From an uncultured Gammaproteobacteria bacterium (GTDB lineage: Bacteria; Patescibacteriota; Patescibacteriia; Magasanikbacterales; UBA922), in the NCBI GenBank assembly GCA_964592785.1, contig CAZQHU010000004.1, forward strand, positions 72 to 64,071: a DNA stretch of 64,000 nt, in the 5' to 3' direction. Below, piece after piece: positions 121 to 25,547 of the stretch (positions within the stretch are counted from its first letter, which is position 1; every line of letters starts with the position of its first letter). Under the pieces are notes generated by a model. That model did no database searches. It had not been told where the DNA came from and was given only the letters and a program-made list of their open reading frames with translations. The position numbers and the translations under genes were made by a program.

Positions 121-624
121 TTAATGAATCCGCCAACTACGTCCTATCCTATCCGACAAAGGTTCGTCTTCTTTTTCTGAATGCTCTGGTAAAAATTCAC
201 GCAAACTATGTTTTATTTCAATGGGATTTTGATCAAGCAGTGGAATGCGCAATAATGGTTGCCAAAAACTCTTGGTTTCCAAAAATAGAGTTTTTACCTC
301 AGGAGGATTGTAAATCAAATAAAAACCTTCAAACTCAGAATAAGAGAAAAAACGCGTCCCTACCACAATACCGGTGTTGGTAATCTGAAATAAAACCTTG
401 GCAGGGTTTTGATGATTTTGTAAAAATAAAATAATTGAAAAAAGTACAATGATTACCGCAAACAAAAAATTACCAGTAAAAATGGCATAAAAAACCAAAA
501 ATAAACCAATGATAGCCATAAAAACATACCAGGATTTCCCACGTTCATAATGTTCATATTCTTGAAAACCCCATTCGTGAAGCACCTGCCCCAGATCCAA
601 ATCATCTTTTATAAGCTGCGGCAT
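121..624 (-). CDS. Hypothetical membrane protein (2 predicted TM helices)
   Basis: The ORF track gives 121..678, but its N-terminal 18 codons overlap the tRNA-like repeat. The internal Met (MPQLIKDD) at 624 is the likelier start. Hydrophobic segments are present. Confidence 0.45.
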   Translation of the reverse strand: MPQLIKDDLDLGQVLHEWGFQEYEHYERGKSWYVFMAIIGLFLVFYAIFTGNFLFAVIIVLFSIILFLQNHQNPAKVLFQITNTGIVVGTRFFSYSEFEGFYLIYNPPEVKTLFLETKSFWQPLLRIPLLDQNPIEIKHSLREFLPEHSEKEDEPLSDRIGRSWRIH

Positions 625-660
625 ATAAAAAAATATTAAAAAACAAAAAAGAAAAAGAAG

Positions 661-775
661 AAATATGAGTGGACCCAACTGGATTCGAACCCCGCCCGAC
701 TGGCCTGACGATAGTCAGGCGGGCGGGCAGTGACCTTCTCAATGTGAATGAGACCCCCCGCCTGCCATAGCTTCG
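661..775 (-). pseudogene. Degenerate partial duplicate of the adjacent tRNA-Val gene, carrying a 37-nt palindromic insertion
   Basis: It repeats the anticodon arm, variable loop and start of the T stem (GGTCTCATTCACATTGAGAAGGTCACTG) and the T-loop GGTTCGAATCCAGT of tRNA-Val. The T stem is split by CCCGCCCGCCTGACTATCGTCAGGCCAGTCGGGCGGG, and the acceptor strands do not pair. Confidence 0.5.
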
Positions 776-849
776 TAGCCACTACTGGATTCGAACCAGT
801 GACCTTCTCAATGTGAATGAGACGCTCTAACCAACTGAGCCAAGTGGCC
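776..849 (-). tRNA. tRNA-Val (anticodon CAC)
   Basis: Cloverleaf: GGCCACT, D-arm GCTC-AGTTGGTTA-GAGC, anticodon arm TCTCA-TTCACAT-TGAGA, T-arm ACTGG-TTCGAAT-CCAGT, acceptor 3' strand AGTGGCT, discriminator A. CCA is not encoded. Confidence 0.8.
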
Positions 850-982
850 ACGGCGGATAAGTCCAACCTCAGCCAGAGACTGGTTGGCCTTTTACTAAAA
901 CTGCCTGCCCGTCGAAGCTTTAGCGAAGACGGGAGCCATGGATCCATTATAGCACAAAAAATTATAACAAAAAAGCCCAATT

Positions 983-2473
983 TTGACAAGAGACTTTACA
1001 ATTGCCAAAAACTTAAATTTACATTATAATATGGGCAATATGCAGATTGAACCCATAAATTTTCTAGAAAAAGAAACTGAAAAAATAAAATCACCCAAGC
1101 CACGCTGGCTGGTTTTTTTGGTTATTTTTACTTTAATTTTTGTTGGCGGCTGCATTACCAGAGCTATTGTTGGCGAGTACGCCCCCAATGAACCAGAGGC
1201 CTACGATCCCGCCACCCTCAAACCCAAAAAACCTGAAGGCTTTTTTCAAACTGTTAAATACCTTATTTTTTCCCAAGACAATCAGCTGGCTGGAGCCAAA
1301 GATGATCGGATTAATATTTTATTACTTGGCATGGGCGGAGCCGGACACGAAGGTCCATATCTAACCGATACCATTATTATTGCCAGTATTGAACCTTCTA
1401 CTGGCAAAATCGCCATGATTTCTATTCCTCGTGATTTGGCAGTTTCCATACCCAAACAAGGAATAAAAAAAATAAATAATGCCAATGCCTATGGCGAAGC
1501 CAAAAATCCTGGGCAAGGAGGAGAATTTGCCTCAGAAATTATTAGTGAAACTTTTGATTTAGATATTCATTACTATGTCCGGATTGATTTCAAAGCTTTT
1601 GCAGAGATCATTGATGCTGTTGGCGGAGTGACTGTCGCTGTGGACAGATCATTCACCGACTATACTTACCCAGCAGAAAATTACGAATACCAAACGGTTA
1701 GTTTCAACCAGGGTATTCAAACCATGAATGGCGATACAGCTTTAAAATTTGTACGTTCCCGCCATGGCTCCAATGGCGAAGGTTCGGACTTTGCCCGTGC
1801 CCGCCGCCAACAAAAAGTCCTAGCCGCTCTCAAAGGCAAACTCTTATCATTTTCCACTTTGGCCAATCCTCTTAAAATAAATAATATTTTAAATAGTTTA
1901 GAAAAACATCTCACCACCGACTTACCTTTTGCTGACATTATCACACTCACAAAAATGATGCGTGAACTGCAAACAGATGCTATAATAAACTTAGTGCTTG
2001 ACGATTCTCCCCAGGGTTTCCTCAAATCCACTTTTGGTAGCGATGGTGCTTTCCTTTTGGTGCCAAAGACAGGTGATTTTACCGACATAAATAATACCAT
2101 CAAAAATATTTTTCAAACCGATGAAACTGTCAAGCATTTAGAAACTACTCCTGTACCTGTTCAAACCACTGCTCCACCTTTGCCCACCGCCAATATTGAA
2201 ATTCAAAATGGTACCTGGAGCGCCGGTTTGGCCGCTCGCATGAAAAAAAGATTAGAAGACAAAAACTTCTTAGTTGAAACCATTGGCAACACTGCTGAAC
2301 GTCCACAAAATCAGAGCGGTATTTATAATATTTCTAACAAAAATCTGAGTGATTTACTTACTGCTCTGCAAGAAGAACTTCGTTTGCCAATAAAAGAAAA
2401 ATTACCAATGGGAATCTCTGCCACCACTTCTACTGATATTTTGATTATTTTAGGCGAAGATCTTGCTGAATAA
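983..2473 (+). CDS. LytR-CpsA-Psr (LCP) family cell-envelope polymer transferase
   Basis: N-terminal TM helix plus an LCP core (DDRINILLLGMGG...DTIIIASIEP...ISIPRDL). Start is ambiguous among 983, 1031 and 1040. Confidence 0.8.
   Translation: MTRDFTIAKNLNLHYNMGNMQIEPINFLEKETEKIKSPKPRWLVFLVIFTLIFVGGCITRAIVGEYAPNEPEAYDPATLKPKKPEGFFQTVKYLIFSQDNQLAGAKDDRINILLLGMGGAGHEGPYLTDTIIIASIEPSTGKIAMISIPRDLAVSIPKQGIKKINNANAYGEAKNPGQGGEFASEIISETFDLDIHYYVRIDFKAFAEIIDAVGGVTVAVDRSFTDYTYPAENYEYQTVSFNQGIQTMNGDTALKFVRSRHGSNGEGSDFARARRQQKVLAALKGKLLSFSTLANPLKINNILNSLEKHLTTDLPFADIITLTKMMRELQTDAIINLVLDDSPQGFLKSTFGSDGAFLLVPKTGDFTDINNTIKNIFQTDETVKHLETTPVPVQTTAPPLPTANIEIQNGTWSAGLAARMKKRLEDKNFLVETIGNTAERPQNQSGIYNISNKNLSDLLTALQEELRLPIKEKLPMGISATTSTDILIILGEDLAE
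1002..1030 (+). promoter_or_regulatory. Candidate sigma70-like promoter (TTGCCA-17-TATAAT)
   Basis: Hexamers with 17-nt spacing directly upstream of the LCP gene. This implies a very short or leaderless 5' end. Confidence 0.3.
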
Positions 2474-19463: not shown

Positions 19464-19524
19464 AAATAAACCTAAAATAAGTTAGAAATATAGTAATATT
19501 TTAGCAAAAATAATTAATTTTGGC

Positions 19525-19572
19525 AATAAAAATGGAAGACCCCCGTCCTGACGTGAAGTCGGAACGAGGGTC
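19525..19572 (-). terminator. Intrinsic terminator for the GC-rich ORF
   Basis: Hairpin AGACCCCCGTCC..GGAACGAGGGTCT followed by TCCATTTTTATT when read on the minus strand. Confidence 0.45.
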
Positions 19573-19634
19573 TATTTTACACCTCCCTTTTGAAAACCAA
19601 ATGATCAGATATCGAACAAATTTTCACTTTCCTA

Positions 19635-20462
19635 TCAACCCAGGGTCACCACCCCCAGAGCCAGACAACCAAGATCGTCTTCGCTCGAGTCATCAAAACG
19701 CCAAATACAATCAAGGCCACCCTGGGCATCACGTCTCAAACTGAAATGCTGAGCATCATCAAACTTGGTACTGGTTCGCACGTACTTACCTTGGAGTGGC
19801 TGTGGTTCGCCAGTAATGAACTCATGGCTCTGGATGACGAGAGTGCCCAGAGACACGCTGCCATGGATAAGCTTGAAGTTCAAACCCAATTTCTGACCAA
19901 CAGTAGCAAGCAGATCTTTCTGCTCCTTCAAGGTTTTCCCGATACTGCCAGGCAACACGAACGGTGCACCAATGATGAGATGTCTGCCTTTTCCACGAAG
20001 CTCATTGGGGAGACTGCCGTGGGCAAACAACCTCATAAGATTCAAGTTATTGTGGCAGGGACCACAATACTTGGATGCCACCTGCACGTTGAACGGTAGA
20101 TGGAATTCCGTATCCACGAAACGTACGATGGGGGTGACCGGTTGTACACCATTGTCCGCGACAAAATCCCGCATGTGGCGCAAGTTCCCAGAAAGCCAGT
20201 TTGGCACACCTGGTAATTCCCCAATATCCAAATCTCTAAGTGGCTTGACAAACATGGACAAAGTCTCACCACGGAATCTACGCTCCACATTCATGGATGC
20301 GACTTGTAAGGCAGTGGGCGAAACGGTGACGAGATTTCTGGCTTGCAGATCACGAGCCACCCCCCAGTTACCCATCAACCAGTCGAACACTCGTTCGGCT
20401 TCCTCTGGTTTCTGCCTATCAATCCTTGCCAATTCATGGAAACTTCTTGGAAACAGTGACAT
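19635..20462 (-). CDS. Hypothetical protein encoded in a GC-rich, compositionally foreign segment
   Basis: Markedly GC-rich. Strong RBS GGAGGAAACCAAG-ATG, unlike native genes. No family recognised. Confidence 0.45.
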   Translation of the reverse strand: MSLFPRSFHELARIDRQKPEEAERVFDWLMGNWGVARDLQARNLVTVSPTALQVASMNVERRFRGETLSMFVKPLRDLDIGELPGVPNWLSGNLRHMRDFVADNGVQPVTPIVRFVDTEFHLPFNVQVASKYCGPCHNNLNLMRLFAHGSLPNELRGKGRHLIIGAPFVLPGSIGKTLKEQKDLLATVGQKLGLNFKLIHGSVSLGTLVIQSHEFITGEPQPLQGKYVRTSTKFDDAQHFSLRRDAQGGLDCIWRFDDSSEDDLGCLALGVVTLG

Positions 20463-20615
20463 CTTGGTTTCCTCCTGCCAACAAGCAATTCATCTTGGCA
20501 AAAAACGCCAGCCCGGCATTTCCCCCCAAAGATGGTAAACTTGTTAGCAAATTGCCGGAGACCTCCCCCGACTTCTTGTCTTAAAATTAACACTTTTTTG
20601 AATTTTTGTCAATAC

Positions 20616-24560: not shown

Positions 24561-24644
24561 AGCATTTAAGGTTTAAAAAAAGCAATTATTATTGAATCTA
24601 ATATATAACAAAGGTCAACTTAAAACAAATGTGGATAATTGGAT

Positions 24645-24826
24645 TGGCTGCCAGGGCAGGATTTGAACCTGCGATATCCTCGTTAACCCGCCTACCAATC
24701 GCCTTGCTCTCCCGGTAGGATTTGAACCTACAACATCTGCATTAACAGTGCAGTGTTCTACCAATTGAACTACAGGAGAGCATGGCGGGCAGGCAGCGAG
24801 GCGTTGTACCACTCAACTACCCGGCA
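24645..24826 (-). tRNA. Outer tRNA-Asn-like gene (anticodon GTT after joining) interrupted in its anticodon loop by about 107 nt that contain a whole tRNA-Asn
   Basis: 5' half 24826-24794: TGCCGGG-TA-GTTG-AGTGGTA-CAAC-G-CCTCG-CTG. 3' half 24685-24645: TTAA-CGAGG-ATATC-GCAGG-TTCAAAT-CCTGC-CCTGGCA-G-CCA. All four stems pair perfectly once the intervening sequence is removed. CCA is encoded. Confidence 0.5.
24707..24779 (-). tRNA. tRNA-Asn (anticodon GTT), nested inside the interrupted tRNA
   Basis: TCTCCTG-TA-GTTC-AATTGGTA-GAAC-A-CTGCA-CTGTTAA-TGCAG-ATGTT-GTAGG-TTCAAAT-CCTAC-CGGGAGA-G. Closely resembles E. coli tRNA-Asn. No CCA encoded. Confidence 0.8.
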
Positions 24827-24989
24827 ATTAAAAAACCCGCTTCTACGGCGGGGTAATTATCTATTATATGAAAAACTACACCTCACCGTTTGAGAGTCAA
24901 CAAATTATTATTGTTATTTAAATGCAGTTTCATACAAAATCATTATAACACATTTAATAAACTATGTCAATATTGGTGTTAATTAGTGT

Positions 24990-25547
24990 TTAAATTAGTG
25001 TTCCCCAATCCCCCACTTTCCTGTCAGTATGATGAATTAAAAATTTATAAATAAAATTATGATCAGGATTTTTATTTATTTCCAAAATATCGTACCCCAA
25101 ACAATGCAGCAATTTGACAACATAATTATCTACTAGCTCAGAGCTAACAGCTGTTAGCTTGTAGCTTTCTAAAATTTTTAGCCATTCCAACGTCAAATCA
25201 AATATACTCTCATCTTTCTCACCTTCATGCAAAACTTTATCAAGTAAACTCATCACATAACCAGCAACTAAACTTTTTTGTAAATCTTGCCTAATGTTTA
25301 CAAAATAATTTATTGACTGGACAGTGCCCAAATGTGATAGTTCTTTGCCAGAAATTATTTCTGCCTCCACTAAAGAAAACGGCTCAAGATGAGCCGAATT
25401 TTTACTAGTTATTTTTTTTACTCCTCGTACCAAAACTTCCAATTTCCCTTTTTCTAGAGTGTACAAAGAAATAATCTGATCATTTTCCCGAAAATCACGA
25501 CGAGAGAGGATAAAAGATTTCATACAATAATTTACATCAAAAACCAA
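24990..25547 (-). CDS. recO: DNA repair protein RecO (short form)
   Basis: N-terminal OB-fold signature (ILSRRDFRENDQIISLYTLEKGKLEVLVRG). 185 aa. Confidence 0.5.
   Translation of the reverse strand: MVFDVNYCMKSFILSRRDFRENDQIISLYTLEKGKLEVLVRGVKKITSKNSAHLEPFSLVEAEIISGKELSHLGTVQSINYFVNIRQDLQKSLVAGYVMSLLDKVLHEGEKDESIFDLTLEWLKILESYKLTAVSSELVDNYVVKLLHCLGYDILEINKNPDHNFIYKFLIHHTDRKVGDWGTLI

Follow-up and report, generated by a model that had tools for sequence, protein, structure and literature searches.

Nested tRNA-Asn genes in a Patescibacteria genome: a probable remnant of a homing-type cassette in an anticodon loop

Why should a bacterial genome carry one complete asparagine transfer RNA (tRNA-Asn) gene inside the anticodon loop of a second, and which of the two would be the working gene? 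The question is raised by a locus on the minus strand, at 24826..24645, of a 64,000-nucleotide (nt) stretch of contig CAZQHU010000004.1 (assembly GCA_964592785.1). We call this stretch the window; it has a G+C content of 38 % and is the only sequence of this genome in our analysis. We think it fairly probable that the locus is the remnant of a homing-type cassette that lacks its nuclease, with a working inner gene and an outer gene that is a relic. We found no description of nested bacterial tRNA genes in the literature searched.

The outer gene is present as two halves on the minus strand. The 5' half (24826..24794, TGCCGGG-TA-GTTG-AGTGGTA-CAAC-G-CCTCG-CTG) provides an acceptor strand, the D arm, the anticodon-stem strand CCTCG and the loop bases CTG, while the 3' half (24686..24645, TTAA-CGAGG-ATATC-GCAGG-TTCAAAT-CCTGC-CCTGGCA-G-CCA) provides the T arm, the second acceptor strand, a discriminator G and an encoded CCA. 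These are the halves reported in the initial annotation, with the correction that TTAA starts at 24686 and not at 24685. When the halves are joined, 21 of 21 base pairs (bp) form (acceptor 7/7 including one G-U, D 4/4, anticodon 5/5 and T 5/5) and the loop reads CTGTTAA. ARAGORN calls the joined gene tRNA-Asn(gtt) with a score of 119.7, compared to 117.8 for the inner gene, in agreement with the textbook cloverleaf described initially. The odds that all four outer stems would pair by chance within 700 nt of flank are about 5e-4 or less by our own estimate from pairing probabilities, made without simulation. The junction is ambiguous by one G and lies at 33/34 or 34/35, so that the joined RNA would read ...CCUCGCU(G) + (G)UUAACGAGG...; alternative joins lead to the anticodon GCC, as already pointed out, or GCT.

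The insert is 107 nt long and its inner tRNA accounts for 73 nt. On the minus strand it runs from a left end CCTGCCCGCC (24793..24784) through a spacer ATGC (24783..24780), the inner tRNA-Asn(GTT) (24779..24707) and a trailer spacer CAAGGCGATT (24706..24697) to a right end GGTAGGCGGG (24696..24687). ARAGORN and Rfam (RF00005, 73.7 bits) both confirm the inner gene as annotated, complete with discriminator G73 and with no encoded CCA, and we presume that it is the working gene. Identity between the inner and the outer gene is as low as 68 %. The insert both splits a tRNA-Asn gene and provides an intact copy of the same gene, as expected of a homing cassette. Two near-identical Logan contigs (L025 and L026, 99.5-99.8 % identity; L-numbers are our labels for comparison loci and contigs) show no single-nucleotide polymorphism in 24561..24990 and so tell nothing about the locus.

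The expectation that annotation tools would miss this arrangement holds: in its intron mode ARAGORN never called the outer gene, with intron ranges from 0-200 up to the default of 3000 nt and with lowered thresholds. At an 80 % threshold it returned a spurious tRNA-Ser on the opposite strand.

Is the insert an intron? The 231-nt region folds as a double cloverleaf (-90.5 kcal/mol, z = -4.7 compared to shuffles). In the minimum-energy fold a 9-bp helix, CUGCCUGCC/GGUAGGCGG, stacks on the outer anticodon stem and is followed by 4 bp of CGCC/GGCG, between the leader and the trailer spacer, and by 3 bp of UGC/GCA, in which the ATGC spacer pairs with the trailer and lengthens the inner acceptor stem, including a C(-1):G73 pair. 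The CCCGCC/GGCGGG pairing reported for the insert ends does exist; the minimum-energy fold favours another register. One explanation for such a structure is that the outer gene is a true intron-containing tRNA-Asn gene whose 107-nt insert, with the inner tRNA as its cargo, is excised at the helix of the palindrome-like insert ends and whose halves are ligated, yielding two tRNA-Asn per transcript. The perfect cloverleaf is consistent with splicing, as joining restores the Asn identity elements U1-A72, G73 and GUU next to an encoded CCA. The same can be said of the junction CUGCCUGCC.../...GGYAGGCGG-GUUAA, which the window shares with its closest structural homologue, L037, and which places the anticodon bases in a 5-nt bulge; every substitution between these two outer genes keeps the structure. 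With the 33/34 junction (…CU|GCCUG…GGCGG|GUUAA) the 5' exon ends in U and the insert in G, the boundary that group I introns have; the junction is ambiguous, and with the 34/35 reading this does not hold. A possible route would be a cut by a double-strand RNase followed by ligation, the 33/34 junction corresponding to a 2-bp stagger with 3'-OH/5'-P ends.

Other observations make splicing very improbable. The locus has neither a bulge-helix-bulge nor a ribozyme match, and we know of no bacterial pathway for such splicing. Magasanikbacteria-type relatives lack the outer anticodon loop (L128) or its 5' stem strand (L009), and the outer copies of L008 and L021 are truncated. The CCA is not conserved, the discriminator G being followed by TTG in L037, CTA in L128 and TTT in L118. 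A second nested unit in the window, at a tRNA-Val gene, could not be spliced into a tRNA at all. The archaeal-like processing of a tRNA within a tRNA that the initial annotation suggested is not supported either, for the same lack of a bulge-helix-bulge and of any ribozyme family, and because the outer halves are often truncated, interrupted or deleted in relatives. Probably no spliced outer tRNA is made.

Several known types of element were considered and rejected. A protein-spliced intron does not fit the fold, where the bulges GUUAA and AUU are both on the 3' strand only and no 4-bp central helix can form between CCUG and UUAA; a manual search for a bulge-helix-bulge motif at the outer junction found none. 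A group I intron, for which the insert was rightly judged too short, would require about 200 nt or more, and no RF00028 core was found. Rfam searches of the nested region at gathering thresholds and at E <= 10 matched tRNA alone, with no intron and no self-cleaving ribozyme, and a gathering-threshold search of eight related loci found tRNA only. The insert ends do not resemble those of the group I introns published for Patescibacteria tRNA-Asn genes. Transfer-messenger RNA was rejected as ARAGORN -m reported none in the region and Rfam no match. A tRNA duplication at an integrase att site is at odds with the position of both halves within 20 nt of the gene and with the lack of an integrase nearby. 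Transposase-type terminal repeats around the inner tRNA were dismissed since the flanking sequences differ in each lineage and their mismatches on the sense strand are G-U, not A-C.

If the insert is not an intron, how common is the arrangement? We scanned for CTGTTAA and a T loop followed by a second T loop 28-58 nt later, a spacing too short for tandem genes. Species-representative genomes gave 24 matching loci, metagenomes 111 and viral contigs 26; since the pattern needs two canonical T loops, strongly decayed or variant nested loci are under-sampled in these counts. In Patescibacteria (Curtiss-, Woese-, Magasanik-, Pacei-, Saccharibacteria and others) the inner tRNA-Asn is flanked on its 5' and 3' sides by pieces of a second tRNA-Asn, with the outer 5' fragment 10 to about 450 nt upstream. 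Many matches outside Patescibacteria consist of a tRNA followed by a 3' partial copy (Chlorobiaceae, Acidobacteria and viral contigs), as expected where an element has integrated.

The state of the outer copy varies widely between loci. By a strict search the outer cloverleaf is complete only in the window, L037 and L128, the last with no anticodon loop, and L118 is one pair short: its 5' loop bases are gone and one stem pair is lost. Hairpins interrupt the D arm in L076 and, twice, the D loop in L021, where no complementary 5' acceptor strand is left. L092 has a broken D loop and two acceptor mismatches, and L009 is without the 5' strand of the anticodon stem. L008 is without an outer 5' half, which its close relative L009 has. 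In L167, whose adjacent MFS protein is 87 % identical to that of L037, only a short minihelix resembling an acceptor and T arm is left at the homologous site. To judge from these sequences, the gradient across loci has the look of decay after disruption. The alternative offered by the initial annotation, a tRNA-Asn gene disrupted in its anticodon loop by a tRNA copy, thus comes near what the comparative data support. Beyond it, the event is one of a recurrent kind: cassettes of this family go together with a GIY-YIG nuclease and with a 20-bp palindrome, and the tRNA-Val gene of the window was hit as well. In addition, the helix that brackets the inner tRNA is under selection at the RNA level.

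The two relatives of L037 found through its MFS neighbour are both contigs that end at the tRNA locus, the remnant being seen in L167 only. These NCBI assemblies (L167, 1..180, and L168, 1..132) end within 130-270 nt of the expected nested unit, and nested tRNA loci may break assemblies.

The association with a nuclease comes from the relatives. In L001, L014 and L051 and in their duplicates (L001/L086/L105, L014/L032 and L051/L080) the stretch from the outer 5' fragment to the inner tRNA holds a GIY-YIG open reading frame (ORF; Pfam PF01541, E ~3e-15), and in loci of Chlorobiaceae and Cloacimonadaceae such ORFs adjoin a tRNA-Asn with a fragment. Of the homologues of the L001 ORF we examined four, at six loci, and each of them (4/4) abuts an entire tRNA accompanied by pieces of that same tRNA, be it Asn (L169, L170), Leu-CAA (L171) or Leu-TAG (L172-174). 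The insertion site is shared as well. The 5' junction ...stem-CT|insert of L169 and L206 corresponds to position 33/34 and matches that of the window, and the 3' junction helix|TTAA is found in L169 and L170 as in the window. These nuclease-bearing relatives are thus interrupted at the same site as the window, CT(G)|...|(G)TTAA, as members of one homing-cassette family should be.

A second association is with an exact 20-bp palindrome, CCTGCCTGCCGGCAGGCAGG, of which we found no description in the literature searched. It is present in the outer fragments of L001, L169, L170, L171, L172 and L206, most often within the D loop and in one case within the T arm. The ends of the window insert, CCTGCCCGCC and GGTAGGCGGG, are the two halves of this palindrome (CCTGCCTGCC|GGCAGGCAGG) with one and two mismatches in ten positions respectively, separated by the inner tRNA. 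The left end is identical in L037; the right end of the L037 insert is GGCAGGCGGG, likewise a palindrome half. Exact copies are also found at L009 320..340, in L173, and in 35 viral-contig stretches from IMG/VR (L175-L209) on contigs of 38-68 % G+C, often with short direct repeats on their flanks and with several copies in some contigs. In L199 and L176 a tRNA-Met has the palindrome as an additional arm in its variable loop, and ARAGORN calls the L199 tRNA. Judged by its distribution, the palindrome resembles a very small mobile element that prefers tRNA loops. L206 (~490..1150) combines these features in the following order: an outer 5' half whose D loop holds the palindrome, a GIY-YIG ORF and an inner tRNA-Asn. 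This inner gene is itself split after CTGT (35/36) by an apparent group I intron with an HNH-type ORF, as reported for other tRNA-Asn genes (PMC13011429).

The window contains a second instance at 945..670 on the minus strand, in which a tRNA-Val gene is interrupted in its D loop. An outer 5' fragment, GGATCCA-TG-GCTC (945..933), is followed by filler that carries CTGCCTGCCCGTC on the opposite strand and then by the inner tRNA-Val(CAC) (849..776, called by ARAGORN) and GGCAGGCGGGGG. A copy of positions 27-53 of the outer gene comes next (754..728), then a 38-nt GC hairpin that divides the T stem, and the outer 3' end GTTCGAATCCAGT-TGGGTCC-A (690..670). The motifs GGCAGGCGGG and CTGCCTGCCCGTC adjoin the insertion, and the unit shares a GC-rich motif with the tRNA-Asn insert. 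The outer acceptor strands pair 7/7, yet no tRNA could be made from this broken copy. Of the six tRNA genes in the 64 kb, two bear nesting scars, which points to a DNA-level process that acts on tRNA genes in general.

With nuclease and palindrome in hand, a fuller version of the splicing idea can be formulated. The outer gene would be a second real tRNA-Asn gene with a tRNA as its 'intron', the helix would be cut at U33|G and G|G34 (2-bp stagger), the inner precursor tRNA would go on to normal maturation, an RNA ligase would seal the halves, and the DNA associated with GIY-YIG genes and palindromes would spread such introns. We regard this as slightly less probable still than splicing as such, and thus as very doubtful.

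A further feature common to the nested loci concerns the transcript. At about 22 distinct loci the bases flanking the inner tRNA pair over 8-16 bp and lengthen its acceptor stem. The sequences of these clamp helices are unrelated between loci and for most of them the duplex energies are 3-8 standard deviations below those of shuffles. On the tRNA-sense strand the helices contain 22 internal G-U pairs compared to 3 A-C mismatches (p = 1.6e-4). Because neutral decay of an inverted repeat in DNA would give equal numbers of both, the bias shows that the pairing is selected in the transcript; folding the antisense strand as a control is not directly comparable, as other registers are found there. 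The tRNA genes for Leu, Pro, Lys and Arg in the window have no such flank pairing and that for Val has a weak 5-bp CCGCC/GGCGG. The clamp may let the inner tRNA fold independently of the near-identical half-molecules on either side, or it may be a processing stem.

How well does the cassette reading stand up? Several observations weigh against it. A profile search found no GIY-YIG ORF in the insert or anywhere in the 64-kb window, so that the link to a nuclease rests on the relatives. The GIY-YIG proteins of these relatives are about 80 amino acids long; they amount to the catalytic domain by itself, lack an obvious DNA-binding domain and are of putative activity. In L021, L076 and L169 the outer and inner genes are nearly the same allele, which would suit in-situ duplication or gene conversion equally well.

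The first and the last of these points bear on a rival explanation, in which nesting arose in place by slippage or ectopic repair at a palindromic hairpin, with no mobile element, and the GIY-YIG genes and palindromes are passengers. Near-identity of outer and inner alleles extends to L018, the insert of L172 is flanked by direct repeats of about 55 nt, and a window without a nuclease gene is in line with this explanation. Duplication in place fits poorly with inner and outer genes in the window that have diverged as far as they have, and with an inner gene that is closest to inner genes from other lineages (L021, 85 %; L014, 84 %). In L118 the acceptor stem and T arm typical of the inner gene of the window belong to the disrupted outer gene, which has another tRNA-Asn inside; on sequence grounds this favours serial invasion. 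Passengers would also hardly be expected to abut a complete tRNA and fragments of the same tRNA in every one of the homologues examined. We consider nesting in place improbable.

A further difficulty comes from L037, the only close structural homologue of the window type that our scans found. Its G+C content is 51 %, it has its own Asn leader ORF, and its neighbouring genes are unrelated as far as they could be read. The outer genes of L037 and the window are nevertheless 88 % identical and each other's nearest relatives, compared to 71 % for the inner genes, with identical D arms and identical sequences at both junctions. All nine differences between the outer genes (9/9) keep the pairing: full compensation is seen at pairs 2-71, 4-69 and 29-41, and 5-68 is G-C in one and G-U in the other. 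The two RNAs fold alike, with the 9-bp helix stacked on the anticodon stem and a GUUAA bulge, and the window outer gene is flawless down to its G73 and CCA. A long-dead pseudogene would not be expected to show such a pattern. Intact and compensated shells therefore imply that the two lineages were invaded independently and recently, the flanks being co-converted, or that selection on the shell has continued. The first would fit if the cassette, with its palindrome arms and flank, homed by co-conversion into functional genes of two lineages and neither relic has decayed yet. The second fits if the outer shell is still selected.

What might such selection act on? It is conceivable that the outer shell is kept as an RNA that does not decode, with its origin by insertion unchanged. 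The minihelix and the stacked helix could give entry points for RNase P and for 3'-end processing that free the unit from the leader and the downstream messenger RNA (mRNA), or the shell could insulate or stabilise the inner precursor tRNA. Several findings are in line with a scaffold of this kind: the conserved, compensated shells and shared double cloverleaf of the window and L037, the G-U bias of the clamp helices, and the remnant in L167, which retains precisely a minihelix similar to an acceptor and T arm. Outer acceptor stems pair 7/7 in most nested loci, also where other parts of the outer copy have been lost (the window, L037, L118, L128, L009, L076, L011, L014, L051 and the tRNA-Val unit). 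The scaffold is harder to reconcile with L008, where the 5' half is absent, and with L021 and L022, where it is not complementary. The inner tRNA alone is already a substrate for end processing, and gene conversion from the inner copy (L021, L076, L128) could preserve the stems with no selection on the shell. To our knowledge no RNA scaffold role of such an outer tRNA shell has been described. A functional outer RNA is possible, given an intact and compensated shell that is shared with one distant relative; a scaffold specifically we think unlikely.

What lies around the nested unit? It is downstream of RecO, in the gap before a thioredoxin-like gene, and is followed on the same strand by an ArsP permease gene and asnS; its gene neighbours are RecO, MgtE, the thioredoxin-like protein, ArsP and asparaginyl-tRNA synthetase (AsnRS). 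The homologues of the window RecO carry the names Magasanikbacteria or Patescibacteria. The initial annotation had proposed synteny as a means to look for an uninterrupted allele. The RecO relatives L027-L029 (65-72 % identity) have no tRNA-Asn between RecO and AsnRS, and because the site of the tRNA-Asn gene is not conserved in them they offer no uninterrupted allele to compare.

Upstream of the outer gene is a sigma-70-type promoter (24970..24942, minus strand) with TTGACA at 24970..24965, a 17-nt spacer and TATAAT at 24947..24942, a layout that recurs in L009, L037, L076 and L021. A leader ORF of 16 codons, MKLHLNNNNNLLTLKR and a stop, follows on the same strand (24933..24883) and includes five consecutive Asn codons; as its ATG is 8 nt past the -10 box, the mRNA should be leaderless or nearly so. 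ORFs with runs of Asn are found at the same place in L009, L037, L076 and L118, and in L021 as read from the sequence. Constrained folds predict an attenuator at 24889..24830 (minus strand) with a terminator and an alternative antiterminator. The terminator hairpin CCCGC-CGUAGAA-GCGGG with U6 (24852..24830) ends 3 nt ahead of the outer gene. The antiterminator CGGUGAGGUG.../...UACCCCGCCG (~24889..24845) overlaps the leader stop codon and takes up the 5' arm of the terminator. With a ribosome placed on the Asn codons the antiterminator forms (-19.0 kcal/mol), and with a ribosome placed on the stop codon the terminator alone forms (-8.4 kcal/mol). Rfam gives a sub-threshold match to Trp_leader at 24827..24905 (24.8 bits, E = 0.0075).

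An Asn-rich ORF and mutually exclusive hairpins, the features of a leader-peptide attenuator, are thus both in place, and the predicted regulation would make the nested tRNA the first product of an attenuated transcript that senses Asn. Because the genes downstream differ among L009, L037, L076, L118 and L021, the regulated product seems to be the tRNA itself. An Asn-codon attenuator ahead of a tRNA gene, and here ahead of asnS too, is a regulatory finding separate from the question of nesting.

Some further loci deserve mention. In Myxococcales/Labilithrix (60-66 % G+C; L002, L005, L006, L012 and several metagenome loci) a tRNA-Asn with a strong leader/trailer helix is followed by a tRNA-like 3' half, GTTGG-TTCGAAT-CCAAC-GTGGTCC-A, that is conserved across several genomes; the matching 5' half was not located in loci of this type. 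The Chlorobiaceae loci L003, L015, L016, L020 and L131 have arrays of tRNA-Asn with 3' copies; in these a hairpin, TCCCGAC-TTG-TCGGGA, takes the place of the 3' anticodon-stem strand. L003, L015 and L131 also have GIY-YIG ORFs 200-600 nt downstream, with a polarity opposite to that of the Patescibacteria cassettes. Elsewhere in the window, at 19500..20500, a 1-kb island of 47-50 % G+C against a background of about 35 % carries a minus-strand ORF of 275 amino acids that is overlapped by long ORFs in other frames; the island is possibly of foreign origin.

Returning to the reading of the locus as a cassette remnant, we hypothesize the following course of events. The resident tRNA-Asn gene, now the outer one, would have been located directly behind the Asn-codon attenuator. 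A GIY-YIG-driven cassette, of a kind that would cleave tRNA genes at or close to a loop and bring a replacement tRNA along when it is copied in, would have been inserted at the DNA level into the anticodon loop, between U33/G34 and U35. We infer that the spread of such cassettes is driven by the nuclease and that the window copy derives from one that encoded it; this copy would have lost the nuclease ORF, unless it never had one, and its ends would be the palindrome halves. After transcription the leader/trailer helix would hold the inner tRNA in its own fold, ordinary tRNA end-processing enzymes would presumably free it, and CCA would be added enzymatically to give a working tRNA-Asn. The outer halves would stay unjoined, as a young relic that has not yet decayed.

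If this course of events is correct, Patescibacteria harbour selfish cassettes that invade tRNA genes and spare the host by means of a spare tRNA and not of a self-splicing intron, a class for which the literature searched holds no description. Such cassettes would form a third layer of mobile DNA at the anticodon loop, beside group I introns and their HNH genes, and would account for frequent mis-annotation of tRNA-Asn and for assembly breaks in the phylum. They would also provide a case in which an RNA clamp helix evolves and keeps a tRNA foldable inside near-identical flanks. Were splicing to prove true instead, it would mean a protein-dependent tRNA splicing pathway in bacteria, and the question of tRNA-in-tRNA splicing in bacteria has a concrete target in the outer shell, which is intact and compensated in two distant lineages.

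How does the locus compare with known systems? Integrase islands and prophages also leave a partial tRNA copy beside a complete one. Their duplication is a single direct repeat of the tRNA 3' end, separated from the gene by the whole integrase-bearing element, whereas both halves in the window are within 20 nt of the inner gene. Intron-containing and split tRNA genes of archaea (PMC4090602) resemble the locus in having an anticodon-loop insert with self-pairing ends and a cloverleaf that forms after its removal. The window differs from them in lacking the 3-nt bulge, 4-bp helix and 3-nt bulge, in its bacterial host and in an insert that is itself a tRNA; its relatives show decay at the DNA level, not conserved splice signals.

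Closer to hand are the group I introns at 35/36 of Patescibacteria tRNA-Asn genes, a known hot spot of homing elements that annotation tools miss (PMC13011429). Phylum, gene and loop are the same, and L206 stacks both types of element. Those introns are self-splicing ribozymes of 230-570 nt with a U...G boundary at 35/36 and ends CTGT|cat.../...gtg|TAA (PMC13011429), whereas the 107-nt insert of the window is at 33/34 or 34/35 and has no ribozyme match.

For the nuclease, the nearest parallel is SegB of phage T4, a free-standing GIY-YIG endonuclease encoded in a tRNA cluster that recognises a T-loop motif, has its major site in a tRNA-Asn gene and spreads with flanking tRNA sequence by repair and co-conversion (PMC2330249). 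Its gene lies among the tRNA genes that are its targets, and in the relatives of the window the GIY-YIG ORF abuts a tRNA. SegB, unlike the cassettes, is located between intact genes and leaves no gene nested in a split copy, and its host is phage T4, not Patescibacteria. It is reportedly 221 amino acids long, compared to about 80 for the ORFs of the relatives, which comprise the catalytic domain only and are of putative activity, and the window copy is without an ORF.

For the replacement of a gene by the invading element, the parallel is found in fungal mitochondria, where endonuclease ORFs (Allomyces atp6; Glomus atp6/atp9/cox2/nad3) insert together with a replacement gene end, so that the gene stays functional and the native end is left downstream as an unexpressed relic (PMC3630166). 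A replacement tRNA inside a split tRNA follows the same logic, and the cassettes proposed here would be the tRNA counterpart of these elements. The fungal elements act on protein-coding genes and replace the 3' end only; here a whole tRNA is supplied, relics are possible on both sides and an RNA clamp is present. From all of these systems the window cassette is further set apart by its tie to a 20-bp palindrome.

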